Below, piece by piece: positions 7,633 through 51,304 of a stretch of DNA of 64,000 nt. Source of the stretch: Planctomycetota bacterium. GTDB taxonomy: Bacteria > Planctomycetota > B15-G4 > JADJEK01. The notes beneath the pieces were generated by a model. The model ran no database searches. It was not told the origin of the DNA and worked only from the letters and a program-made list of their open reading frames with translations. A program made the translations under genes and the position numbers. The stretch is taken from NCBI GenBank assembly GCA_044225365.1, contig JBGAIQ010000019.1, forward strand, positions 1 to 64,000, in the 5' to 3' direction. Within the stretch, counting starts at the first letter, position 1. Every line of letters begins with the position of its first letter.

Positions 7633-8538
7633 ATGCTCCCGATCTCGTTCGCGACCTGGTCCGCACTCCTGCTCGCCACCTTTGTCCTCTTCGCGGCGAG
7701 GACGGACACCCGCCCGACTCCGATGCCGCTGTGGAAGGAGGGCGCCCCGCTCGCGAAGGGGACGGAACAAACGGACATTCCGTCGATCGCGATGTACGCG
7801 CCCAAGAAGGAGGACCAGAGCGGTGCGGCCGTCATCGTCTGCCCCGGAGGCGCGTACTGGATGCTCGCCGATCACGAGGGCCACGACATCGCCGTGTGGT
7901 TGAACGCGCATGGCATCACCGCCTTCGTCTTGAAGTACCGGCTCGCGCCGAACTACGGCTACCCCGCGCCGATCCTCGACGCCGCGCGCGCGGTGCGCAC
8001 GGTGCGCGCACGAGCAGGGGAGTGGGGGATCGATCCGCATCGCATCGGGATCATCGGATTCTCGGCGGGAGGGCACGTCGCGTCGACGACGGCGACGCAT
8101 TTCGACGACGGAGATCCGAAGGCGAATGACCCCATCGATCGAGTGAGCAGTCGGCCCGACCTCGCGATCCTGTGCTACGCCGTGATCTCGATGGAGGACG
8201 GAGTGACTCACGGCGGATCGAAGAAGAACCTGCTCGGCGATGCACCCGCGGCCGATCTCGTGAAGCTCCTGTCCAACGAGACGCAGGTGACTCCGAATAC
8301 TCCGCCGACCTTCCTCTTCCACACCGCCGACGACGGCGCGGTCCCGGCGGAGAACGCCCTTCGATTCGCCTCCGCGCTCGCCAAGGCGAAGGTCCCGTAC
8401 GAGCTGCATCTCTACGCGAACGGTCCGCATGGCGTGGGACTCGCCCAAGGCGACCCGGTCCTGAAGACGTGGCCCGGACTTCTCGCGAATTGGTTGTACG
8501 TTCGCGGATTCATCAAGACTCCGGACGCTTCGCACTGA
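7633..8538 (+). CDS. Secreted alpha/beta hydrolase (BD-FAE/acetyl-xylan esterase-like)
   Basis: CPGGAY, GFSAGG nucleophile elbow, DDGAV and HGVG catalytic residues; signal peptide. Confidence 0.9.
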
Positions 8539-37513: not shown

Positions 37514-39589
37514 ATGACGACGACGATCACGAGAGACCGGCTGCGACGAAAGGCGTCCCCGGCTCTGCTGTTCCTCTTCACTCTTGCGAGCGCCGCGACG
37601 GCCGAGGATCGCCATCCACTCACGATCCACGACATGCTCGCGATGCAGCGCGTGGGGGACGTCGCCGTGTCGGCGGGCGGCACCAAACTCGCGTTCACCG
37701 TGCGCACGACGGACGTCGCCGCGAACACGGGTCGCTACGACGTGTGGCTCGTCGATGCGAAGGAGGGCGGTCCGCGTCGCCTCACGTCGAACGTCGCGAA
37801 CGACACGTCCCCGCGTTTCTCGCGCGACGATCTCTCGATCTACTTCCTCTCGTCCCGCAGCGGGTCCTCGCAGATCTGGTCGCTGTCCCTCATGGGCGGC
37901 GAGCCGACGCAGATCACGGACCTGCCGCTCGACATCGACAACTTCCTCGTCTTCCCCGATGGCCGTCGATTCCTCGTCTCCATGGAGGTGTATCCCGACG
38001 CCAAGGACCTCGCCGAGACCGCGGCGCGCGATGAAGCGAAGGCGAAGTCCAAGATGAAGGCGAAGGTCTACGACTCGCTCCTGTTCCGCCATTGGGATCA
38101 GTGGGAGGACGGCAAGCGCAGCCATTGGTTCACGCTCGACGCCGTGACGGGGAAAGCGACCGACCTGATGGCGGGCATGCCTTGCGACGCTCCGAACAAA
38201 CCGTTCGGCGGTGCGGAAGAAGCGACGATCCGGAACGACGGCAAGACGGTCGTGTTCGCGACGACGAACATGGGTCGCGAGGCGGCGTGGTCGACGAACG
38301 TCGATCTCTACAGCGTTCCTTCCGACGGATCCGCGGCGCCGACCTGCCTCACCACCGACAACCCGGCGACCGACAATCTCCCGCAATTCTCACCCGACGG
38401 ACGTTTCCTCGCGTACGTCGCGATGAAGCGGCCCATGTACGAATCGGATCGTCAGGGGCTCATGATCCGCGAGGTCGAGAGCGGAAAGGTCCGTGAGATC
38501 GCGCCCAACTGGGATCGTTCCGCGAGCGGCTTCACGTGGAGCCGCGACGGAAAGACGCTCTACGCGACCGCCGATCACATCGGCAACACCGGCCTGTTCG
38601 CCGTCGACGTCGGAAGCGGCACGGTGAAGCCGCTCATCGAGAAGGGCGCCGCGGGCGGCCCGGTCGCGATCGAGGGCGGAGTTGCGTTCCTCTGGAACGA
38701 CATGAAGCACCCCGATGAGATCCACACGCTCGACGCCGCGGGGAATCGAAAGGTCCTGACCGCGATCAACGCACCGCTGCTCGAGAAGATCGCCTTTGGC
38801 GACTACGAGCAGTACTCGTTCAAGGGCGCGCACGACGACACGGTCTACGGCTACGTGATGAAGCCGTGGAACTACGAGAGCGGCAAGAAGTACCCCGTCG
38901 CGTTCTTGATCCACGGCGGCCCGCAGGGCTCGTTCTCGGATCACTTCCACTATCGTTGGAACGCCGAAGCGTTCGCGGGCCGCGGACTCGGCGTCGTGTT
39001 CGTCGACTTCCATGGGTCGACGGGATACGGCCAGGCCTTCTGCGACTCGATCCGCGGCGATTGGGGCGGCGCACCGTACGAGGACTTGATGAAGGGCCTC
39101 GACGCCGCGCTCGCGAAGTACTCGTTCCTCGATGGCTCGCGCGTCGCGGCGGCGGGCGCGAGCTACGGCGGTTACATGATCAACTGGATCGCGGGCCAGA
39201 CGGATCGCTTCAAGTGCCTCGTCTGCCACGACGGCAATCTCGACAACCGAATGGCCTACCTCGACACCGAGGAACTCTGGTTCGACGAATGGGAGCACCA
39301 CGGCACGCCGTGGGAGAATCCCGACGCGTTCAGCAAGCACAACCCGATCGACTTCATCAAGAACTGGAAGACTCCGACGCTCGTCCTGCACGGCGGCAAC
39401 GACTTCCGCGTCGTCGATACGCACGGCATGGCGACGTTCACGGCGCTGCAGCGCAAAGGGATTCCGTCGAAGTTCGTGTTCTTCCCGGACGAGAATCACT
39501 GGGTGCTGAAGCCGCAGAATTCGATCCTCTGGCACGACAGCGTGCTCGACTGGATCGATCAGTGGACCAAGTCGCCGCCCGCCAAGTGA
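37514..39589 (+). CDS. S9 family peptidase (dipeptidyl-peptidase V-like)
   Basis: Signal peptide, beta-propeller, IHGGPQG, GASYGG, DFRV, ENHWVLKPQN. Confidence 0.93.
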   Translation: MTTTITRDRLRRKASPALLFLFTLASAATAEDRHPLTIHDMLAMQRVGDVAVSAGGTKLAFTVRTTDVAANTGRYDVWLVDAKEGGPRRLTSNVANDTSPRFSRDDLSIYFLSSRSGSSQIWSLSLMGGEPTQITDLPLDIDNFLVFPDGRRFLVSMEVYPDAKDLAETAARDEAKAKSKMKAKVYDSLLFRHWDQWEDGKRSHWFTLDAVTGKATDLMAGMPCDAPNKPFGGAEEATIRNDGKTVVFATTNMGREAAWSTNVDLYSVPSDGSAAPTCLTTDNPATDNLPQFSPDGRFLAYVAMKRPMYESDRQGLMIREVESGKVREIAPNWDRSASGFTWSRDGKTLYATADHIGNTGLFAVDVGSGTVKPLIEKGAAGGPVAIEGGVAFLWNDMKHPDEIHTLDAAGNRKVLTAINAPLLEKIAFGDYEQYSFKGAHDDTVYGYVMKPWNYESGKKYPVAFLIHGGPQGSFSDHFHYRWNAEAFAGRGLGVVFVDFHGSTGYGQAFCDSIRGDWGGAPYEDLMKGLDAALAKYSFLDGSRVAAAGASYGGYMINWIAGQTDRFKCLVCHDGNLDNRMAYLDTEELWFDEWEHHGTPWENPDAFSKHNPIDFIKNWKTPTLVLHGGNDFRVVDTHGMATFTALQRKGIPSKFVFFPDENHWVLKPQNSILWHDSVLDWIDQWTKSPPAK

Positions 39590-40254
39590 CGGCGGATCCA
39601 GAAGCGCTTCAGTGTGCGGGGGCTGTCCTTCGGGAGTTCGCCGCGTCCATGCACGATCCGCGTGTTGTCGACGTAGAGGCTCTGGCCCGGCTCGAGTCGC
39701 ACGTCGATCCGCGGCGAGGATTCGATCGCGTCGGAGAATCTCCGAAAGGTCTCGCGAACCGCCGGGTCTTCGATCGGAGCGACGTTCCAAGCGGCGTAGT
39801 AGACCCGCGGCCCTCCGCTGTCACGCGAGAGCAGCGGGACGAGCGTCGCGTCGAGGCGGCCGTCGACGTCCGGGCAACGCATCGTGATCTGGCCGAGACG
39901 ATCGCGATCGTCGTCGCTCAGTGAGTCGAGGATCGGCCTGCTGTCGACGAGGCGCGTCGCGCCCCCGATCTCCGCCGCGCGGACGCAATACCACGCGATC
40001 CGATCGACGTAGTGCTGATCCGTATGCAGTCCGAGTTCGCGCGGCGAATGCGCGCCGCGCGGACTGTTGCCGAGCTTGATGTCCTCGATTCGCAGGACGC
40101 TACCCAGGCATCTCCCGAGGTGGTAGAACGACCCGACGCGAATCGGTTGCTCGAGCACGTGGAAGCCGCGAGATTCCAGATCCCGCTCGATCATGGCGAC
40201 CGCTGCGGCGCCATCGAACGGGACTTCGCGAGGAGTGTCGGTCGATGCGGACAT
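39559..40254 (-). CDS. TauD/TfdA family Fe(II)/2-oxoglutarate dioxygenase
   Basis: LHTD facial-triad motif, C...A..GG.T.LVD, DN.RI.HGR, R.L.R; start could extend to 40311. Confidence 0.82.
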   Translation of the reverse strand: MSASTDTPREVPFDGAAAVAMIERDLESRGFHVLEQPIRVGSFYHLGRCLGSVLRIEDIKLGNSPRGAHSPRELGLHTDQHYVDRIAWYCVRAAEIGGATRLVDSRPILDSLSDDDRDRLGQITMRCPDVDGRLDATLVPLLSRDSGGPRVYYAAWNVAPIEDPAVRETFRRFSDAIESSPRIDVRLEPGQSLYVDNTRIVHGRGELPKDSPRTLKRFWIRRHLAGGDLVH

Positions 40255-40345
40255 CACGATGTCGTATCCTCTCGGAATCTTCTCGCTTTCGTCGGCGACT
40301 CGGAGCGGCATTCGACATGACCAACGAACGGGGCAGCGAGCGCAA

Positions 40346-40852
40346 ATGAGCTACTCCACTCCATACCACGAACACGGCGTTCCCATCGACTCCGAGTTCT
40401 GTCGCGGCTCGAACACGGCGCGCAAGGCGCGACACGTTCTCGAGGATTCGCGCAGATTGCTGGGTTGCGACGAGGCCGCTCTCTGGGTGTTCAGCAAGGA
40501 CAACCAGAATCTCGTCGCCGCGCTGAATCACGGCAAGCACGAGAAGAGCGTCGAGGGACTCGAGGTCCAGATCCGCGGTTCGCTCGTCGGGCTCGTCGCA
40601 ATGACGGGCGAGGGCATCTGCGTAGGGCCCGATGCGAACTACAACCCGGAGGTCGCCCGCGCCCTCGACGTCAAGACGTACGCGATGGTCGCCGCCGCCG
40701 TCGTGGTCGACGACGAGATCTGTGGCGTGATCTCCGCGGTCAACCTGTACGGGACGACGGAGTCGATCTTCACCGTCGAGCACCTGCGTGCGGTGCAATG
40801 GGCGGCGTACGTCATGGGTCTCGTGCTCTCGGATTGCAAGAAGCGTGATTGA
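40346..40852 (+). CDS. Stand-alone GAF domain protein
   Basis: GSLVGLVAMTGEGI...MVAAAV......GVISAVN.....FT.EHL GAF pattern; stop overlaps the S8 gene start. Confidence 0.8.
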   Translation: MSYSTPYHEHGVPIDSEFCRGSNTARKARHVLEDSRRLLGCDEAALWVFSKDNQNLVAALNHGKHEKSVEGLEVQIRGSLVGLVAMTGEGICVGPDANYNPEVARALDVKTYAMVAAAVVVDDEICGVISAVNLYGTTESIFTVEHLRAVQWAAYVMGLVLSDCKKRD

Positions 40853-41636
40853 CGCGCCGCTCACCGACGACGAATTGACCGCCGCGACCGGCGAGGGAAT
40901 TCGGGTGCTCGTGATGGACTCCGGAATCGAGTCCGATCACCCGACGCTCGTCGGCCGCGAGATCCCGAACTTCGAGGTCCTGCCGTTCCCGATCGGCGCC
41001 GACGTCACGTATCGAGTCCAATCGGCGCCCGGCGGCGATGCGTTCGGGCACGGAACCGCCGTCGCTTCCCTGCTCGTCGCGCATGCGCCAGGCGTGAAGA
41101 TCGAGAGCTTGCGGATGCTCGACGCCGATCGTCAGGGCAGTTCCGAGCGCGTCCTCGCCGGGCTGCGCTGGGCGATCGAGCGGCGCTTCGACATCGTGAA
41201 CTGCAGCTTCGGCACCTTCGGTCCGTCGACGACCAAGTTCCTCGCCTCCTACAAACGAGTCGTCGACATCGCATTCTGTGAGAACGTGCTGCTCATCGGC
41301 GCGTGCTCGAACTCGGACCATCGACTGACGTCGCTCCCGGCCTCGTTCCCGACCGTGCTCTCGACCGATGCCGGACGGATCGAGGATTCGCCGCTGCCGA
41401 AGGTGAAGCGACGCAAGGGACAACTCGTCGAGTTCGTGACGCGCGGCGTCGACGTCTCGGTGTCCTGGAAGGATGGCAGTTCGCGCCTCGTAACGGGTAG
41501 CAGCTTCGCTGCCCCGCACCTCGCGGCGCTCGTCGCCCGCATCCGACAATTGCGACCGCATTGGAATGCTTGCGAGATGAAGGCGGAGTTGTACCGTCGA
41601 TCCGAGCCCGTCACGGCCGCGGACGACGCCGACTGA
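40845..41636 (+). CDS. Small S8 subtilisin-like serine protease (no signal or propeptide)
   Basis: Catalytic triad motifs VMDSGI, GHGTAVA, TGSSFAAPH. Confidence 0.88.
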   Translation: MIDAPLTDDELTAATGEGIRVLVMDSGIESDHPTLVGREIPNFEVLPFPIGADVTYRVQSAPGGDAFGHGTAVASLLVAHAPGVKIESLRMLDADRQGSSERVLAGLRWAIERRFDIVNCSFGTFGPSTTKFLASYKRVVDIAFCENVLLIGACSNSDHRLTSLPASFPTVLSTDAGRIEDSPLPKVKRRKGQLVEFVTRGVDVSVSWKDGSSRLVTGSSFAAPHLAALVARIRQLRPHWNACEMKAELYRRSEPVTAADDAD

Positions 41637-41711: not shown

Positions 41712-42383
41712 GTGAGTGAAGCCGACGAATCGAAGAAGCCATCTCCATCGCTCGTACGCGCTCGCGGCGAGCCCTCGCTCGCAGAGTCCGCGCGCGAGTG
41801 GGATGCGTTCTTCACGAGCGGCAGGTATCGCGAGGAATGGCACCTCGATCAGGCGTCCCCCGAACTCATGTGCCTGCTCGCAGCGGGGATCGTCGTGCCG
41901 CCAGGGCGCGCGCTCGACCTGGGTTGTGGAGGTGGCACGGAGGCCGTGCATCTCGCGCAACAGGGTTTCACGGTGACGGCCCTCGACGTTTCGGGCGAGG
42001 CACTTGCGATGACTCGGCGGCTCGCGGCGCGGCGCGGCGTCAAGCTTGCAACGCTTCAGGCCTTCGTGCCGAGAACCGAGCTCCCCGACCAGTCCTTCGA
42101 CTTCATCAATGATCGCAGCTGCTTCCACGCCATCGAGCCGAGGCTCGAGGTGCTCACCGCCTACGCCGCGGAGATCCAGCGCATCCTGGTTCCGGGCGGC
42201 GTCCTGTTCATTCGCAGGTTCGGTCAGCCGCAGATCTCCCTCTCGACGTTCTCGTCCGTATTCTCAGAAGAAGCCGGATTCGATCTCGGGCGCGTTCAAG
42301 AGGTCCCCTTCCACGAACCTCATTTTCCCTCGCGAGTCGCCGTGATCCGGTGGCGGGGGAAGAGTGCGTCGCGAGCATCATGA
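41712..42383 (+). CDS. Class I SAM-dependent methyltransferase (TPMT/thiol-MT-like)
   Basis: W....SPEL, GRALDLGCGGG.EA..LA..GF.VTALDVS, FD.I.DRSCFH. Confidence 0.88.
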   Translation: MSEADESKKPSPSLVRARGEPSLAESAREWDAFFTSGRYREEWHLDQASPELMCLLAAGIVVPPGRALDLGCGGGTEAVHLAQQGFTVTALDVSGEALAMTRRLAARRGVKLATLQAFVPRTELPDQSFDFINDRSCFHAIEPRLEVLTAYAAEIQRILVPGGVLFIRRFGQPQISLSTFSSVFSEEAGFDLGRVQEVPFHEPHFPSRVAVIRWRGKSASRAS

Positions 42384-42396
42384 TGGAGGCAGTCGC

Positions 42397-43578
42397 ATGA
42401 GCATCGTCCTCGACCGTCGATCGTCGTCGCAGCCGCAATCGAACGATCCGCGAACCCTCCTTCCGCTCGAGGTGTTCTTCCAGAACATCCGCTACGTGAC
42501 GCTCAAGCTGACGAACGGCTGCAATCTGAAGTGCTCGTACTGCAACGTCGAGGCCGATTCGCCCACCACGCCGAAGATGAAGATCGAGACCTTCAAGAAG
42601 GTCGCGAAGCTCCTCATCGAGAACTCGAAGTTCCCGCAACTCGGACTCGAATTTCACGGCGGCGAGCCGATGCTCCTCCCCGATGCGTGGTACGAAGAAG
42701 CGGTCGGTTACGCGGGAGAACTCGCGAAGAAGCACGGCAAGTTCATTACGCATCCGCTGCAGACGAACGGCACGTTGCTCACGGAGGAACGCGCGAACAA
42801 GCTGATGTCGCTCGGAATCCAGATCGGCTTCTCGATCGACGGTCCGCCCGACATCAATGACAAGATGCGCGGCGCCGGCAAAGCCGTCGAGAAGGTGATT
42901 CGACGCATGAAGTCGCAGGGCCGCGGCTTCGGCTGCCTGCTCGTCCTGAACCGCTCGAACTGCAATCACATGTACCGGGTGATGGACTATTTCCGGGAGA
43001 TCGGGATCGAGAACTACCGGATCAACTTCCTGCAGCCGCAGGGTCGTGGCTTGACGCAGGATCTCCTGACGGCGGAGGAGATGTTCGCGGGTCTCAAGGG
43101 CATCTTCGATCACATGCTCGACACGAATTGCTCGGTGCTCGAGTCGACGACGCAGACGATGGTCCAGCGGTTCGCGATCGGTCGCAATCCGCAGCCGGCG
43201 CTCTCCTGCTGGGAATTCCAGTGTCAGGCCGGCCGCGTCTATTGCGCAATGAACGATCGCGGCGAACTCCACGCCTGCGGCACGGACATGCAGCACCATC
43301 GACTCGGTGACATCGACACGCCACTGAACCGCCCGCACGTGGAGGCGGTGCTGAAGAAGCTTCACCACAAGGACGAGTGGTACGTGCGCTGCTTCGACTG
43401 CAAGGCGCGGCGCATCTGTTCGATGTCGTGCCCGACGAGCGACCACAACGATCTCTTGTATCGCGAACGCGAGTGCGCGTACACCAAGATGATCTACCGC
43501 TACTACGCGGAGAACGAAGACAAGGTGCTGCAGCTCCATGCCCGGCTGCAGCAACTCCGCCCGAATGGGGCGATGTAA
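42397..43578 (+). CDS. Radical SAM/SPASM peptide maturase
   Basis: CNLKCSYC, FHGGEP, QTNG, SIDGP; SPASM Cys array C..C...C...CFDCx5Cx3Cx14C; RBS GGAGG. Confidence 0.93.
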   Translation: MSIVLDRRSSSQPQSNDPRTLLPLEVFFQNIRYVTLKLTNGCNLKCSYCNVEADSPTTPKMKIETFKKVAKLLIENSKFPQLGLEFHGGEPMLLPDAWYEEAVGYAGELAKKHGKFITHPLQTNGTLLTEERANKLMSLGIQIGFSIDGPPDINDKMRGAGKAVEKVIRRMKSQGRGFGCLLVLNRSNCNHMYRVMDYFREIGIENYRINFLQPQGRGLTQDLLTAEEMFAGLKGIFDHMLDTNCSVLESTTQTMVQRFAIGRNPQPALSCWEFQCQAGRVYCAMNDRGELHACGTDMQHHRLGDIDTPLNRPHVEAVLKKLHHKDEWYVRCFDCKARRICSMSCPTSDHNDLLYRERECAYTKMIYRYYAENEDKVLQLHARLQQLRPNGAM

Positions 43579-43641
43579 GCGCGGAATTCCGCGCCTACGA
43601 TGCGAGGGCAGAGGTACTACGTCCCAAAAAGGAGTTTGAAC

Positions 43642-44088
43642 ATGGCTATCGTCCGCAGTGAGGACGGCCGTTTCTTCGACGTCGACGACACGGAACTCGA
43701 CAAGCATGAGATCAAGCCGGAAGACCTCCCGACCGGATCGGTCTACGCCCGCCCGCAAGGTGGGCCCGGGATGGGCGGTCCCGGCGCCGGTGGACCCGGG
43801 ATGGGCGGCCCGCGCGGCGGCGGCGGTGGTCCGGTGCAACTCGTCATCAATCTCGGCGGCGGCGGTGGAATGGGCGGCGGTGCGCCGCAGATGGGCTCCG
43901 GCCCGCAGGCGTCGGGTCCGGTTCAGCGCGGTCAGGGCGGGCAACAGGCCGGCGCGCGCGGTGATGTCCAGGCTCACAATTGGTGCGGCATGCCGTGGCC
44001 GTGGGGCAACTGGCACAACTGGCACAATTGGAACAACTGGAACAACTGGATGAACTGCTGGAACAACTGCTGGCACAACTGCAGCTGA
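43642..44088 (+). CDS. RiPP precursor peptide with Trp/Asn/Cys-rich repetitive core
   Basis: Strong RBS AAGGAG; acidic leader, Gly/Pro linker, then DVQAH-NWCGMPWPWGNWHNWHNWNNWNNWMNCWNNCWHNCS; lies between the rSAM and DUF692 genes. Confidence 0.88.
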   Translation: MAIVRSEDGRFFDVDDTELDKHEIKPEDLPTGSVYARPQGGPGMGGPGAGGPGMGGPRGGGGGPVQLVINLGGGGGMGGGAPQMGSGPQASGPVQRGQGGQQAGARGDVQAHNWCGMPWPWGNWHNWHNWNNWNNWMNCWNNCWHNCS

Positions 44089-44096
44089 GATCCAGC

Positions 44097-44134
44097 GCGG
44101 GGTGCGCCCGGTCGAGCGACCGCGCGCACCCCGC
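44097..44134 (+). terminator. GC-rich stem-loop immediately after the precursor gene
   Basis: GCGGGGTGCGC-c-CGGTC gagc GACCG-c-GCGCACCCCGC; no U-tract. Confidence 0.65.
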
Positions 44135-44185
44135 TCACCTCGAATCCCTCGTCCGTCCAAATCGCCCGGCGCCGAAGAGGTCCTC

Positions 44186-44575
44186 ATGACTCGGGTCTAC
44201 TCTCTCGATGGTCGCGTCTTCGAACTCGACGAATCGATGCTCGCCAAGTCGCAGATGGCGGCCGAAAAGGTGAGTCGCCTGATCGACAAGGACACGTTGC
44301 CCGAGCCGCCGCCGGTCGGCGACTTCCCGCAACAGGGCATTCCGCCGCACATCCAGCAGATGCTCGCGCAAGGGGTCGAACTGCCGATCCCCGAGGAAGC
44401 GCGTCACCTGGTGCGTGCGCGCAGCTTCATGGACGGAACGATCGTCATCGACATCGACGTTCGAGCGCTTCCCGGTTCGTCGGCGTGCGGGGGTCCCGCC
44501 TGTGGGCCCGCTCCGCGCGATCCCGCGGGGCAAACGCGGCCGGGCGAATGCGACTCCGGGGCCCGTCCGGCATGA
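44186..44575 (+). CDS. Precursor-like protein sharing the leader motif
   Basis: RVYSLDGRVFELDESMLAK aligns with precursor IVRSEDGRFFDVDDTELDK; RBS GAGG; stop overlaps MNIO start (ATGA). Confidence 0.75.
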   Translation: MTRVYSLDGRVFELDESMLAKSQMAAEKVSRLIDKDTLPEPPPVGDFPQQGIPPHIQQMLAQGVELPIPEEARHLVRARSFMDGTIVIDIDVRALPGSSACGGPACGPAPRDPAGQTRPGECDSGARPA

Positions 44576-45711
44576 GGCCACGGCTTCCGGCGTACGGAGT
44601 GGGCATCGGCTACCGATACTGCATCCATCGCGAGATCTTGCGCTGCGCGCCGATGATCGATTTCCTCGAAGTCCCGTCGGAGGATTACGTCGAGGACGAT
44701 CGGCGAGCGCGATTCGATCCCGACGAATCCCTGCTGCGCGCCGCGGTCGAACGCTTCCCGTGCGTCGCGCACGGCACGGGTCTCTCGCTCGGCACTGCCG
44801 CGCCGCCGGATGAGAACTATCTGCAGCGGCTCGCGAACTTCGCCGAACGGACGCCGATCGGCGAGTATTCCGAGCACCTGTCGTTCATCCGCGGGATCGA
44901 TCACGAGGTCGATGCGTTCATGGCGCTCCCGTTCACCGACCTCGGCGTCGCGATCGCCGCCGAGAACGTGATGCGTTCCGCTCGAGCTCTCGGCGTCCCC
45001 TTCCTCGTCGAGAACGTGAGCTACTACTTCGCGCTGCCGGAGTCGACGTACAGTGAGGCCGAGTTCATCTCGCGGGTCGCGCAGGCTGCTGATTGCGGCA
45101 TCCTGCTGGATGTCGCGAACCTCCACATCAACGCCACGAATCACCATTACGACCCCGAGGCCTTCATCCGCGCCTTGCCGAAGGAGCGCGTGCTCCATTC
45201 GCATTTCTGCGGCGCGAGCCGAGGTCCGGATCGGTTCCTCTACGACACGCACTTCGAAGTGACGATGCCCGCCGTCTGGCGCATCCTCGATACGGCGTTG
45301 CGGGAGACGGCGCTGCGTGCGCTCGTGTTCGAACGCGATCAGCGGTTCGTTCCGTTCCAGGAGCCGATGGAAGAGATCTTCCAGGCGCGCGAGTTGTTCC
45401 GCCGGCATCGCAAGACCAAGCCATTGCTGCCCGTCACGACGCACTCGCCGGCTCCCGCGGGTGGCGACGATGCGGTCTACTCTCGGGAGTTGCGAAAGCT
45501 CCAGGACGTGCTGTGCCGGTTGTTGACCGACGAGGATCTCGGGCGCGCGGTCGAGCGCGAGGGTGAAACCGCGCTCGTCCACACCGGGATCGACCGCGAT
45601 TCGCGGCGCATCCTCGCCGCGATTCCGGGCGTCGCGCGCGAGCGCATCGGCCGGCGGCTGCGCGAGCGGCTGCGAAAGGGTGGGCGCTCCAACGTGGAAT
45701 CGTTGCCATGA
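44572..45711 (+). CDS. DUF692 family multinuclear non-heme iron oxidative enzyme (MNIO) with C-terminal extension
   Basis: GVGIGYR, DFLEV, HG.GLSLG, SEHLSF, LVENVSYY, LLDVANL.IN..NH, H, DTH, ERD. Confidence 0.92.
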   Translation: MRPRLPAYGVGIGYRYCIHREILRCAPMIDFLEVPSEDYVEDDRRARFDPDESLLRAAVERFPCVAHGTGLSLGTAAPPDENYLQRLANFAERTPIGEYSEHLSFIRGIDHEVDAFMALPFTDLGVAIAAENVMRSARALGVPFLVENVSYYFALPESTYSEAEFISRVAQAADCGILLDVANLHINATNHHYDPEAFIRALPKERVLHSHFCGASRGPDRFLYDTHFEVTMPAVWRILDTALRETALRALVFERDQRFVPFQEPMEEIFQARELFRRHRKTKPLLPVTTHSPAPAGGDDAVYSRELRKLQDVLCRLLTDEDLGRAVEREGETALVHTGIDRDSRRILAAIPGVARERIGRRLRERLRKGGRSNVESLP

Positions 45712-47600
45712 CCGAATCGAGAGATCCGGGGCCGCCGCCGGGCATGAAGGACGCGGGACCTCCGAAGGGAGTTGCGGATAGTGGTCCGCCGCCGGGGATG
45801 AAGGACGAACCCCCGGCCGATGGCGGTCCACCGCCCGGGATGATCGACGCCCCGCCGAAGCTGGATCGGGAGACGATCGCGTTCTTCGTACCCTACGTGC
45901 GAAAGCAGCGCGGACGTCTCCTCGCGATCCTCGGCATGCTCCTGTTCTCCGCGCTGATGCCGGTCGCGATGAGCTTCCTGCCGACGAAGCTCGCTCAGAA
46001 TTGGCATCCGGGCGGCGAACACGAAGTCATGAAGTGGCTCGTGGCATTCCTGGCGCTCTCGGTCGTCGCGCTCACGCTCGCGCCCGTCCAGGGTTATCTG
46101 ACGGCGCGCGTCGCGCAGGACCTCGCGTGTGATCTGAAGGGCGCGATCTTCCGCAAGGTCGGCGCGATGTCGAAGACCGCGATGGCGTTCCGGTCGGTCG
46201 GATCGCTCGCGCATCGCAGCTCCGGCGATGTCGCTCATCTCCAGGAGTTCCTCGCCCGCTTCGTGCCCGATGCCGTCGCGAACGTGATCCAGCTCGTGTT
46301 CGTCGTCCTCGCGATGCTCTGGCTGCAGCCGGTCATCGCGATCGTCGGGCTCGTCCTCGTTCCGACGATCTGGTTCATCATGGACCGCTTCAACGCGAAG
46401 GTTCGACTGCTCGCACGCAGTTCGCAGAAACAGAGCGAGTCGTCGCTCACGCGGCTGATCGAGGGCGTCGCGGGGTACATCGATCTCGTCGCCGCCGGAC
46501 GCTTCCCCAAGGCCGCGGACGAATACGTGAGCGTGCTCGACGATCTGCGGCGCACGGCGATCAAGATGACGCTGACGAGTTCGATCGCCGCGCTCATTCC
46601 GAGCATCGCGTTCATGGCGATCACGAACGGCTACTACTTCGTCGCCGCGGCCGACGAGAAAATGCTCGCCGCGACGACGGTCGGATTCGGCCAGGTGATG
46701 ACCTTCGTTTCGCTGATCAACGTCGTGCGCATGCCGATCATGACGCTCGCTCGGTTCTTCACCGAGACCGCGATCGCCGCTCCGAGCTTCCACGAAGTGA
46801 AGAAGCTCCTCGAGTCGCCCGAGGTGTCCGCGCCGACGCACGGCGTGAAGATCGACGGCAGCGCGATCGAGTTCAAGGGCGTGGTATTCAGTTACGGCCC
46901 AGGCTTCCCGCCCGTGCTCGATGGCGTCTCGTTCCGGATTCCCGAAGGGAGCTTCACAGCGATCGTCGGCGAGACCGGGTCCGGCAAGACGACGCTCTTC
47001 CACATGCTGCTGCGGCTCCTCGAGCCGACGAGCGGAGAGATCCGCCTCGGCAACTCGACGCTCGGCGCGATCGCCCTCGAGGATTTGCGGTCGTACGTCG
47101 GATTCATTCCGCAGTCGCCTTTCCTGTTCGATGCGACGATTCGTGAGAACGTCGCGATCGCGCTCGCCGAGAACGAAGTCGATCAGGAGCGATTGCTGCG
47201 GGCCGTGAAGCTCGCGCGGCTGGAGCCCGTCGTCGAGAAGCGCAAATCCCAGGGCGGACTCGATGCCAAGGTCGGCGCCGCCGGCGCGAGTCTCTCGGGC
47301 GGAGAACGGCAGCGCGTCGCGCTCGCGCGCGTCTTCCTGCGCGATCCCAAGATCATCGTCTGCGACGAATACACGGCGAACATCGACAACGCGACGGCGC
47401 GGATCATCCAGGAGTCGATCGCACGCGAATTCGCCGGGCGCACGCGCGTCGTCATCACGCATCAGCTCTACACGATCCGCGGGGCGGATCAGATCCTGGT
47501 GCTCGACCGCGGGCGAATCGTCGATCGGGGCACGCACGAGGAACTCGTCGCGCGCGGCGGGCTGTATCGTGAGATGTGGGAAGTCCAGCGGCTCGCGTGA
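45708..47600 (+). CDS. ABC exporter (fused TMD-NBD)
   Basis: TM domain, Walker A GETGSGKT, LSGGERQR, Walker B IIVCDE, H-loop; no C39 domain; start overlaps MNIO stop. Confidence 0.93.
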   Translation: MTESRDPGPPPGMKDAGPPKGVADSGPPPGMKDEPPADGGPPPGMIDAPPKLDRETIAFFVPYVRKQRGRLLAILGMLLFSALMPVAMSFLPTKLAQNWHPGGEHEVMKWLVAFLALSVVALTLAPVQGYLTARVAQDLACDLKGAIFRKVGAMSKTAMAFRSVGSLAHRSSGDVAHLQEFLARFVPDAVANVIQLVFVVLAMLWLQPVIAIVGLVLVPTIWFIMDRFNAKVRLLARSSQKQSESSLTRLIEGVAGYIDLVAAGRFPKAADEYVSVLDDLRRTAIKMTLTSSIAALIPSIAFMAITNGYYFVAAADEKMLAATTVGFGQVMTFVSLINVVRMPIMTLARFFTETAIAAPSFHEVKKLLESPEVSAPTHGVKIDGSAIEFKGVVFSYGPGFPPVLDGVSFRIPEGSFTAIVGETGSGKTTLFHMLLRLLEPTSGEIRLGNSTLGAIALEDLRSYVGFIPQSPFLFDATIRENVAIALAENEVDQERLLRAVKLARLEPVVEKRKSQGGLDAKVGAAGASLSGGERQRVALARVFLRDPKIIVCDEYTANIDNATARIIQESIAREFAGRTRVVITHQLYTIRGADQILVLDRGRIVDRGTHEELVARGGLYREMWEVQRLA

Positions 47601-47648: not shown

Positions 47649-48698
47649 GTGACCTCGCAATCGGTCCACGGCCGCGGCGCGGCCGACAATCCCGACAACC
47701 GATTCGTCCGCCTCACGGTCGAGCCCGATCCGGAGTGCAGCCAAGAAGAGCGGGCGATCGTCACCGAGTACTTCGTCGATGCCTCGAAGACGATCCTGTC
47801 GCGCAACGACAGCCCCGACATCGGATTCGAGTTCAGCGTCAACCCTTATCGGGGCTGCGAGCACGGATGCATCTACTGCTACGCGCGGCCGACGCACGAA
47901 TACCTCGGCCTCTCCGCGGGGCTCGAGTTCGAGAGCAAGATCTTCGTGAAGGAGAAGGCGCCCGAACTCCTGCGCGCGGAACTGATGAACGAGAGGTGGC
48001 GGCCGCAGGCGATCAACTTCTCGGGTGTGACCGATTGTTATCAACCGCTCGAGCGACGGCTGCGCCTCACGCGGCGCTGTCTCGAAGTGCTGATCGAGTT
48101 CAAGAACCCGGCGGCCGTCATCACCAAGAGCGCGCTGATCGAGCGCGACATCGACGTGCTGGCCGAACTCGCGGCGATCGGCGGAGCGCTCGTGGGCATC
48201 ACGATCACGACGCTCGATGAGTCGCTCGCTTCCAAGCTCGAGCCGCGCGCCGCTTCCCCGCGGCGGCGAATCGGCGCGATCGCAGCACTGGCAAACGCGG
48301 GCGTCCCGGTGCACGTGATGACGGCGCCGATCGTGCCCGGGCTCACCGATCACGAGATCCCGGCGATCCTGAAGGCCGCTGCAGAAGCCGGTGCGCGGTC
48401 AGCGGGATGGACTCTTCTGCGGCTCCCGCACGCCGTGAACCCGTTGTTCGAGGACTGGCTCACGCGGTACGCGCCGGGTCAGAAGGAGAAGGTGCTGCGA
48501 CGCATCGAGGACGCGCGCGGCGGCGAGCGGCACGACTCCAGATTCCATGTTCGGATGCGCGGTGAAGGACGCATCGCCGAGGAAGTTGCCGACATGTTCG
48601 CCTTCGCGCGCGACCGCGCGGGCCTCGCGCCGGATGCTCCGAAACTGTCCGCGACGCACTTTCGTCGACCTGGCCCGCAACAGGGCAAGCTCTTCTGA
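47649..48698 (+). CDS. PA0069/Rv2578c family radical SAM protein (SplB-like, DNA repair-associated)
   Basis: GRGA..NP.NRF, SVNPYRGCEHGCIYCYARPTHEYLG, TDCYQPLE; ends QGKLF. Confidence 0.9.
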   Translation: MTSQSVHGRGAADNPDNRFVRLTVEPDPECSQEERAIVTEYFVDASKTILSRNDSPDIGFEFSVNPYRGCEHGCIYCYARPTHEYLGLSAGLEFESKIFVKEKAPELLRAELMNERWRPQAINFSGVTDCYQPLERRLRLTRRCLEVLIEFKNPAAVITKSALIERDIDVLAELAAIGGALVGITITTLDESLASKLEPRAASPRRRIGAIAALANAGVPVHVMTAPIVPGLTDHEIPAILKAAAEAGARSAGWTLLRLPHAVNPLFEDWLTRYAPGQKEKVLRRIEDARGGERHDSRFHVRMRGEGRIAEEVADMFAFARDRAGLAPDAPKLSATHFRRPGPQQGKLF

Positions 48699-48777
48699 TG
48701 GACCGCCAAGCTCCAGCTTGGCTCCTCTCTTCTCTTCCGATGGACCGCCAAGCTCCAGCTTGGCTCCTCTCTTCTCT
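48697..48777. repeat. Tandem pair of GGAC-type REP palindromes (42-bp period)
   Basis: Two copies of GATGGACC-GCCAAGCTCCAGCTTGGC-TCCTCTCTTCTCT between convergent genes. Confidence 0.8.
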
Positions 48778-51082: not shown

Positions 51083-51298
51083 GGAGCGCCGGGCTCTGCC
51101 CGGCAATGGGGCGGCGATGCGGAGGAAAGAAGATGCCAGGCTGGAGCCTGGCGGTCCGCCTGGCGGTCCGAATTTGGAGCGCCGGGCTCTGCCCGGCAAT
51201 GGGGCGGCGATGCGGAGGAAAGAAGATGCCAGGCTGGAGCCTGGCGCTCCGCCTGGCGGTCCACCTGGCGGTCCACCGGGCGCTCCGCCTGGTGGTCC
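51083..51298. repeat. REP doublet array (93-bp period) with 12-bp tail repeats
   Basis: Two copies of GGAGC-GCCGGGCTCTGCCCGGC...GCCAGGCTGGAGCCTGGC, then CCTGGCGGTCC-like repeats; between convergent genes. Confidence 0.8.
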
Positions 51299-51304
51299 GG
51301 CCGC

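Follow-up and report, generated by a model that had tools for sequence, protein, structure and literature searches.

What would be made of a peptide whose last 36 residues carry eight Trp-x-Asn (WxN) motifs, encoded directly after a radical S-adenosylmethionine (rSAM) enzyme and upstream of an oxidative enzyme dependent on multinuclear non-heme iron (MNIO)? The question is raised by a locus in a 64,000-nucleotide stretch of DNA from a Planctomycetota bacterium (assembly GCA_044225365.1, contig JBGAIQ010000019.1, positions 1 to 64,000; the whole stretch is called the window here). We suggest that the peptide is the precursor of a triceptide-like product, a peptide made on the ribosome and modified after its translation (RiPP) that would carry up to eight Trp-to-Asn three-residue cyclophanes, and in which the MNIO would convert the cysteines that directly follow Asn (N-C sites). 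Judged from the conservation of the motif and by analogy with precedent, this reading has a probability of roughly 55%. The elements on which it leans are the following.

42364..43578, + strand: radical SAM/SPASM peptide maturase with no N-terminal RiPP recognition element (RRE); Pfam PF04055 (63.5 bits) and motifs
43642..43977, + strand: leader peptide, 112 aa, with the MAIVRSEDGRFFDVDD motif, Gly-rich linkers and QLVINLGG, ending in GDVQAH; homologue alignment
43978..44088, + strand: core peptide, 36 aa and stop (WCG, five WxN, three WxNC); translation, motif count and shuffle test
44007..44050, + strand: tandem repeat, 9 bp, 4.9 copies, 91% matches, coding for the period-3 WxN units; Tandem Repeats Finder
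44053..44082, + strand: tandem repeat, 12 bp, 2.5 copies, 94% matches, coding for the WxNC units; Tandem Repeats Finder
44572..45711, + strand: MNIO (DUF692), extended at its C-terminus by about 80 residues of helical structure; Pfam PF05114 (234 bits, cut-off 25)

The core, NWCGMPWPWGNWHNWHNWNNWNNWMNCWNNCWHNCS followed by a stop, is the translation of 43978-44088 on the + strand and makes up the last 36 residues of a 148-aa open reading frame (ORF); the codon at 43978-43980 is AAT (Asn), and 44088 is the last base of the stop codon. Translation and counting bear out what the first-pass annotation of this DNA had described, namely a core with 10 Trp, 12 Asn, 4 Cys and 3 His and with eight WxN motifs, five at period 3 (WGN, WHN, WHN, WNN and WNN) and then three at period 4 with an added Cys (WMNC, WNNC and WHNC). 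The 9-bp tandem repeats that it had placed behind the period-3 units are also found there. The fourth core Cys lies in WCG, ahead of the WxN units, and is not an N-C site. When the 36 residues are shuffled, the mean number of WxN motifs is 3.24, and at least eight are found in 90 of 200,000 shuffles. When the whole window is translated in six frames, a 36-aa stretch with more than one WxN occurs nowhere but at the core locus.

The precursor probably starts at ATG 43642, behind AAAAGGAG, and the ORF at 43642-44088 thus consists of a 112-aa leader and the 36-aa core. An alternative start at 43600 was rejected, as the 14 additional residues are found in no homologue except P0002, which is the window's own database record. 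Three features are common to all precursors: the leader motif MAI[VL]R[SG]xDG[KR]F[FY][DE][VI]xD, a hydrophobic strand motif of the type (I/V)Q(L/I)V(I/V)N, and a [D/E]V..[H/R/Y] junction ahead of the core. Inspection shows the N-terminus of the window precursor (MAIVRSEDGRFFDVDDTELDKHEIKPEDL) to be charged and free of any hydrophobic stretch. A 30-bp repeat (2.4 copies at 43747-43820) codes for the Gly/Pro-rich linker of the leader (GGPGMGGPGAGGPGMGGP), and the linker length differs widely among homologues.

Neither the precursor nor ORF2, a second leader-like peptide encoded downstream, has a match in Pfam or NCBIfam at E <= 0.01. A word-indexed protein search with the precursor returned nine proteins at E <= 10, including P0002, and an exhaustive HMMER search among 1.84 billion proteins returned 27 cluster representatives at E <= 1e-3. 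Using the window rSAM as a query against genome contigs, we have identified seven loci whose rSAMs are 49-61% identical to the window's, and in all seven the precursor adjoins the rSAM gene. The hosts are metagenome-assembled genomes of Verrucomicrobiales, Planctomycetales, Pirellulaceae, Gemmatales, Planctomycetia and Hyphomicrobiales (two genomes). Five further loci were found by a metagenome scan with the rSAM, and precursors also occur in four further genomes beyond the seven loci. The rSAM is single-copy in the window's genome and is present in 3 of 401 genomes of a sample of the window's phylum (E <= 1e-60; these include G000, and the phylum is also that of the L002 genome) and in 5 of 401 genomes when the order of a Hyphomicrobiales genome was scanned; we therefore regard the system as rare and of patchy occurrence. 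Another scan at phylum level, this time around G402, covered the same phylum and added no locus. This precursor family is apparently undescribed and occurs sporadically in Planctomycetota, Verrucomicrobiales and Hyphomicrobiales.

Several variants were observed at the margins of the family. Three sequences of 95-114 aa (P0030, P0031 and P0032) have a different, signal-peptide-like N-terminus and a C-terminal WxN run (e.g., ...PWGNWRNWNNWNNWRNWRNWGW...), and by their sequences may be a separate WxN peptide family. At L012 (419-781), a leader of the same family precedes a core of HxC-type repeats (HHCHHCHRCHRCHNCHHCHHCFF). At L011 (6162-6446), a leader of the same family precedes the core WFYYWWWTNY and adjoins an rSAM and an MNIO that are both divergent (26% and 23% identical, respectively). 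Three Hyphomicrobiales-order loci, L030 (G1012), L031 (G846) and L032 (G978), have two to four precursor copies, tandem or dispersed, with WRNC or WRNH repeats and a TauD-like dioxygenase nearby. L017 (G092:C321) has two tandem rSAM paralogues, 31-34% identical to the window's, and no leader-family precursor in the 4.1 kb examined.

It is evident that the WxN register proposed in the first-pass annotation is kept in homologous precursors. Core statistics were taken from 39 non-identical cores out of 46 sequences collected, after three coreless fragments (P0023, P0024 and P0029), a sequence with no aromatic repeat (P0016) and P0030-P0032, with their different N-terminus, had been dropped; P0007, with its frameshifted tail, and the later loci L030-L034 are outside this count. 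Asn is found at position +2 of 165 of the 201 Trp residues (mean of 42.5 and maximum of 59 in 2000 shuffles), and W, F or Y stands two residues before 179 of the 215 Asn residues. At least two WxN motifs are present in 32 of the 39 cores. The residues that separate the units vary: there may be none (WxNWxN), or C, N, Y, A, G or HH, giving for example WxN, WxNC, WxNN and WHNHH. Since the unit-to-unit spacing is variable, the constant relation is that from i to i+2 inside the unit. In some members W is replaced by F or Y, as in P0034 (FxNC seven times) and P0022 (YRN). The comparison of repeat number among homologues, for which the annotation had called, shows five or six WxN followed by three four-residue units in the closest homologues (P0003-P0005), and repeat number thus varies. 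The two-module layout that it had drawn for the core holds in this close subclade only, and elsewhere the spacers are mixed. Eight of the 39 cores, including those of L002 and L004, have no Cys at all.

The rSAM has CxxxCxxC at residues 53-60, which leaves no room for an N-terminal RRE, and a full SPASM motif in CFDCKARRICSMSC (CxxCx5Cx3C). NCBIfam models of RRE-less enzymes (PapB, DynA, AmcB, YhhB, GrrM/OscB and WgkB) align to it from their own first positions. Of the Cys-free systems, L002 has an rSAM that shares 54% identity with the window's, and L004 one that shares 53%. The stretch of L002 that aligns with the rSAM N-terminus (about 7998-8120) has one in-frame TAG, and the true start is probably downstream of it.

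What such an enzyme might do with a WxN unit is indicated by precedent. Triceptides are defined by a link from an aromatic residue to C-beta on aromatic-X-X motifs (PMC11499958). XncB joins Trp C6, and OscB Trp C7, to Asn C-beta (PMC11002830), and the WVN ring of xenorceptide A2 is a Trp-C6 to C-beta link (bioRxiv 10.1101/2024.12.16.628070). The first-pass statement that W-x-N is a crosslinked triceptide motif thus agrees with the literature. The window system resembles the triceptide systems (XncB/xenorceptides and OscB) in its aromatic-X-X motifs with Asn in third place, in having several units per precursor and in the adjacent RRE-less rSAM/SPASM enzyme. It differs from them in an rSAM that scores far below the cut-offs of GrrM/OscB, YhhB and AmcB, in an unrelated, very long (112 aa) and Gly-rich leader, in five to nine back-to-back units, and in its partner genes, which code for GAF and S8 proteins, for an MNIO and for an ABC exporter that lacks a C39 domain. 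Triceptides are found in Enterobacterales and cyanobacteria, whereas this family is found in Planctomycetota, Verrucomicrobiales and Hyphomicrobiales. Three-residue motifs that begin with an aromatic residue and end in Asn, beside an rSAM/SPASM enzyme, are the hallmark of triceptides, and together with the Cys-free cores they lead us to infer up to eight Trp-Asn cyclophanes.

MNIO status tends to follow the presence of Cys in the cores. Core composition and MNIO status can both be judged in twelve systems; G939, whose precursor is off the contig, and L008 and L009, for their short contigs, were left out as uninformative. An MNIO is present in 9 of the 10 Cys-containing systems (the window, L003, L005, L007, G405, G237, G1012, G846 and G978), and in neither of the two Cys-free systems (L002 and L004; whole genome, E <= 1e-20). 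The sole core Cys of L003 lies in a penultimate N-C-H. In 9 of 12 Hyphomicrobiales precursors, all Cys residues are in an N-C context (WxNC), and the other three, from G405 (L006/L028 and L034), also have W-C-W, Y-C-W or Y-C-C cysteines. The co-occurrence and the N-C context support the N-C cysteines as probable MNIO sites, several of the systems being close kin.

The nearest NCBIfam families of the MNIO are HvfB (193.5 bits, cut-off 360) and BufB (188.5, cut-off 310), and it falls below both cut-offs. Both HvfB and BufB act on Cys, with oxazolone-thioamide or thiooxazole products (PMC12452194), and the oxazolin (HvfA/HvfBC) and bufferin (BufA/BufBC) pathways are among the closest known systems. 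Unlike those pathways, the window has no DUF2063/RRE partner gene, as judged from the Pfam matches of ten cluster proteins; the MNIO has a C-terminal helical extension instead. The structure model shows a TIM barrel and four helices at residues 300-369, and this extension, which has no Pfam match, is also present in the homologues of L003, L005 and L007. A further difference is the Cys context, which is N-C-W rather than EGKCG; on inspection, the N-terminus of the window precursor also shows no obvious Sec signal peptide. An MNIO and an rSAM also act on one precursor in the pathway of biphenomycin-like peptides (MNIO PbsCD and an rSAM crosslinker; PMC12257519; PMC12452194). In that pathway, hydroxylation of Phe by the MNIO yields the ortho-Tyr residues that the rSAM goes on to crosslink, whereas the present system has WxN and N-C, and its MNIO is dispensable in Cys-free members.

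Several observations weigh against a triceptide-like product. The sequences are related and some are near-duplicates (e.g., L009 and P0012), so that the core counts overstate independent support, and the chemistry is argued from motif conservation and precedent. The best NCBIfam match of the rSAM is PapB, a ranthipeptide thioether maturase (114.9 bits, cut-off 340), followed by anSME (105.1); the cyclophane-synthase models score lower than these two (AmcB 77.4, cut-off 425; YhhB 72.1, cut-off 445; GrrM/OscB 68.3, cut-off 310; WgkB 61.9, cut-off 650), and the enzyme reaches the cut-off of none of the curated families among the matches listed (XyeB is not among the best 25). Foldseek ranks anSME and the thioether enzyme CteB ahead of the triceptide synthase ChlB. 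The WxNC motif, in which a thioether could form, is 13-fold enriched in the 39 cores (52 observed, 4.0 expected), and Asn-Cys thioethers are made by NxxcB and QmpB (PMC11851443). The genome of L001 has three N-C sites, yet no MNIO was found there with the window MNIO as the query. At L011 a divergent MNIO stands alongside a Cys-free core. In the window itself, ORF2 may be the main MNIO substrate. The first-pass annotation had taken the N-C sites to be reserved for the MNIO; MNIO does track Cys, but the N-C sites of L001 make "reserved" too strong a word.

The possible role of ORF2 leads to the alternative that survives best, although we regard it as doubtful: the window MNIO would mainly modify ORF2, leaving the cysteines at the N-C sites of the WxN core as thiols or disulfides. 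The gene picture in the first-pass annotation lacked ORF2 and so missed this second candidate substrate.

44186..44575, + strand: ORF2, 129 aa, leader paralogue with no WxN core and with a Cys-Gly tail; pairwise BLASTP, homologues and alignment

ORF2 resembles the N-terminus of the precursor (pairwise BLASTP, E = 0.004). Its strand motif TIVIDIDV aligns with QLVINLGG of the precursor, both leader motifs thus being common to the two peptides. The ATGA at 44572-44575 holds both the ORF2 stop and the start codon of the MNIO, and the two genes are translationally coupled. Two homologues are known, P0036 (93% identical) and P0037 (65%, ending in ...GGPGTCGA), and the Cys-Gly tail is kept in both. 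Together with the coupling and the tail, the N-C sites of L001 and the even number of Cys residues (four) in the window core speak for this alternative. Against it, MNIO presence follows Cys in the WxN cores, and tblastn shows no ORF2 counterpart in other loci, including the MNIO-bearing L003, L005, L007, L030-L032 and L034, where the WxNC precursor is the sole candidate substrate seen. The predicted complex of MNIO and ORF2 scores 0.02 against a mark of 0.32, which gives no verdict for or against binding, and the best ESM Atlas score of ORF2 (0.83) is below the meaningful level. ORF2 may be a second, MNIO-only precursor or a leader mimic.

Two further alternatives concern the rSAM reaction itself. 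The AlphaFold2 model of the enzyme (mean predicted local distance difference test score 78.9) is matched about equally by anSME, CteB and ChlB in Foldseek, and ChlB, a solved triceptide synthase, is a full-length fold match (template-modelling score about 0.64-0.69). Other NCBIfam scores are 104.6 bits for DynA (cut-off 450) and 80.8 for DarE (cut-off 650), and the enzyme is thus not of the families that make dynobactin and darobactin (bamabactins). The thioether-maturase models SCIFF and CcpM score 74.1 (cut-off 425) and 83.1 (cut-off 500), also below their cut-offs. We attempted to read the chemistry from similarity and gave this up, as NCBIfam, PDB and Foldseek agree on a SPASM enzyme and none of them separates thioether formers from cyclophane formers.

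It is somewhat unlikely that the rSAM performs another reaction on WxN, such as a C-N or C-O link, attack on another Asn carbon or on the side-chain amide, epimerization or hydroxylation, in which case the product would not be a strict triceptide. The enzyme is about equally far from many SPASM families of differing chemistry, and the bonds made by known rSAM cyclophane synthases include C-C, C-O and C-N (PMC11499958; PMC11851443). The fixed i/i+2 spacing from aromatic residue to Asn, with F or Y in place of W in P0034 and P0022, is nevertheless the exact triceptide motif, and on such a motif two enzyme families are documented to make a Trp-to-Asn C-beta link (PMC11002830).

Another possibility is that the rSAM makes thioethers of the sactipeptide or ranthipeptide type from Cys, for example to Asn C-alpha or C-beta, and that Trp serves only in structure or recognition. 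The best sequence matches of the rSAM are to enzymes of this kind (PapB, CteB, NxxcB and QmpB), PapB being the best NCBIfam match in 13 of 13 family members and CteB the best PDB sequence match (59 bits); with the WxNC enrichment described above, this is what can be said for it. The window core has four Cys residues, but five of its eight WxN motifs have no adjoining Cys, and the rSAM scores lie far under all family cut-offs. Cys is missing from 8 of the 39 cores, including those of L002 and L004, and as the rSAMs of these two systems are 53-54% identical to the window's, the conserved rSAM reaction is taken to be Cys-independent. From these sequence comparisons, thioether-only chemistry appears unlikely.

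It is unlikely that the precursor is a multi-unit cassette from which the S8 protease would release many small WxN(C) cyclophanes by cutting between crosslinked units, for although repeat number varies freely among homologues and the serine protease WprP2 is reported to cleave uniformly a repeated-motif cyclophane precursor (PMC12957482), the period-3 units have no spacer residues for a cleavage site, the conserved [D/E]V..[H/R/Y] junction speaks for a leader removed by one cut, and the exporter is conserved. The WprA/WprB system is alike in having a repeated three-residue Trp-x-X motif (WPR, three times) on which a single rSAM makes the same crosslink throughout (Trp-C5 to Arg-C-gamma; PMC11851443), and in the serine protease of the pathway, WprP (PMC12957482). 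It differs in that WprB carries a twitch domain and depends on a small chaperone, WprC, whereas the window enzyme has a full SPASM motif, its acceptor would be Asn, and the units have no spacers.

If the triceptide-like reading holds, maturation could proceed as follows. The RRE-less rSAM/SPASM enzyme would recognize the conserved leader and, by 5'-deoxyadenosyl radical chemistry, would link a ring carbon of each Trp to C-beta of the Asn at +2, giving up to eight back-to-back three-residue cyclophanes. The MNIO would then oxidize the Cys that follows Asn to a sulfur heterocycle or thioamide, like its nearest characterized relatives HvfB and BufB on Cys. The S8 protease, with its conserved GAF partner, would cut off the leader near GDVQAH, and the ABC transporter would export the product. 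We infer each of these chemical steps from features that are themselves observed: the sequence, the operon, the family, the conserved WxN and the joint occurrence of MNIO and Cys.

The genes for these later steps lie around the precursor. Eight same-strand genes, in the order GAF, S8, methyltransferase, rSAM/SPASM, precursor, ORF2, MNIO and ABC exporter, are separated by short gaps or have overlapping stop and start codons. The remaining features of the neighbourhood are as follows.

39559..40311, - strand: TauD/TfdA-family Fe/2-oxoglutarate dioxygenase, divergent, a recurrent accessory gene; Pfam PF02668 (62.9 bits)
40193..40852, + strand: GAF-domain protein, start uncertain; Pfam GAF (39.8 bits)
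40788..41636, + strand: subtilisin-like S8 serine protease, presumed leader peptidase; Pfam PF00082 (72.6 bits)
41712..42383, + strand: SAM-dependent methyltransferase, TPMT/TehB-like; Pfam Methyltransf_11 (61.2 bits) and TPMT (46.6 bits)
44097..44134, + strand: GC-rich stem-loop directly 3' of the precursor stop, with no U tract; RNA fold of 44086-44150
45708..47600, + strand: ABC exporter, fused permease and ATPase; Pfam ABC_membrane and ABC_tran
47649..48698, + strand: PA0069-family radical SAM protein, full-length, directly 3' of the ABC exporter; 460.7 bits, cut-off 360

Immediately 5' of the S8 gene, mostly with an overlap, lies the GAF gene; this holds for the window and for all six other loci checked (L001-L005 and L007). 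This constant pairing suggests that the two proteins act jointly in leader removal or its control. By tblastn, S8 homologues are found in L001-L005, L007, L009, L030, L031 and L034, ABC exporter homologues in L001-L005, L008, L009 and L035, and TauD homologues in the related clusters L030, L031 and L034. The methyltransferase has no tblastn match in other loci and is found in the window lineage only. No C39 peptidase domain was detected by Pfam in the ABC exporter. The RNA fold of 44086-44150 has a free energy of -37.2 kcal/mol (z = -4.79), and none of 200 shuffles is as stable. The stem-loop may stabilize the transcript, or may be a partial terminator that raises the ratio of precursor to enzymes. 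The PA0069-family protein was considered as a cluster member and rejected, as its family is of housekeeping type and has no counterpart in related loci. Near-perfect tandem repeats were also observed beyond the cluster, at 48690-48777 (42 bp, 2.1 copies, 97%) and 51083-51299 (93 bp, 1.9 copies, 98%, with an adjoining 12-bp array of 5.1 copies).

How far is this system covered by earlier descriptions? The precursor has no curated model in Pfam or NCBIfam, no curated NCBIfam family takes in the rSAM, and the MNIO passes Pfam PF05114 only, not HvfB or BufB. By text search, with supplementary catalogues outside its reach, the family peptide strings WRNCW, WHNHHW, NWHNW and FYDVPD occur in no paper, and the matches to WNNWNN are nucleotide patterns. 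A literature search for the WxN motif gave only unrelated papers among the best 25 of 167 matches. No paper found by text search combines cyclophane, radical SAM, Planctomycetes and precursor, although the family may sit in supplementary lists. In the MNIO landscape paper (PMC12452194), "radical SAM" occurs in the reference list only and Planctomycetes are never mentioned. About 3900 putative triceptide pathways have been reported (PMC11499958), and the precursor family could be listed in their supplementary tables or in those of the MNIO networks.

The proposed chemistry is an extension of known kinds, the triceptide combined with MNIO chemistry on Cys. A further-reaching version, which we put forward only tentatively and do not favour, is a new hybrid class: a ladder of up to eight (elsewhere nine) Trp-Asn cyclophanes, in which the MNIO would build a thio-heterocycle or thioamide at the N-C junctions on the carbonyl of the crosslinked Asn, giving a rigid, His/Trp-rich metallophore rod with S and N donors, and for which ORF2 would either serve the MNIO as a further substrate or mimic the leader. 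Bamabactin-type cyclophane peptides are antibiotic leads, and Cys heterocycles made by MNIOs are copper ligands; antibacterial and metal-binding activities of the product are therefore worth testing.

If the WxN units are crosslinked, the core would be, to our knowledge, the densest run of three-residue cyclophanes reported, and cyclophane formation by an rSAM would be coupled to MNIO chemistry on the residue right after each ring. The family itself would provide natural controls for enzymology, with Cys-free members that lack an MNIO and Cys-containing members that have one, with spacers of 0, 1 and 2 residues, and with W, F and Y as donors. The RiPP toolbox would also gain a leader family, a conserved GAF and S8 processing pair, and an MNIO that has no partner protein.

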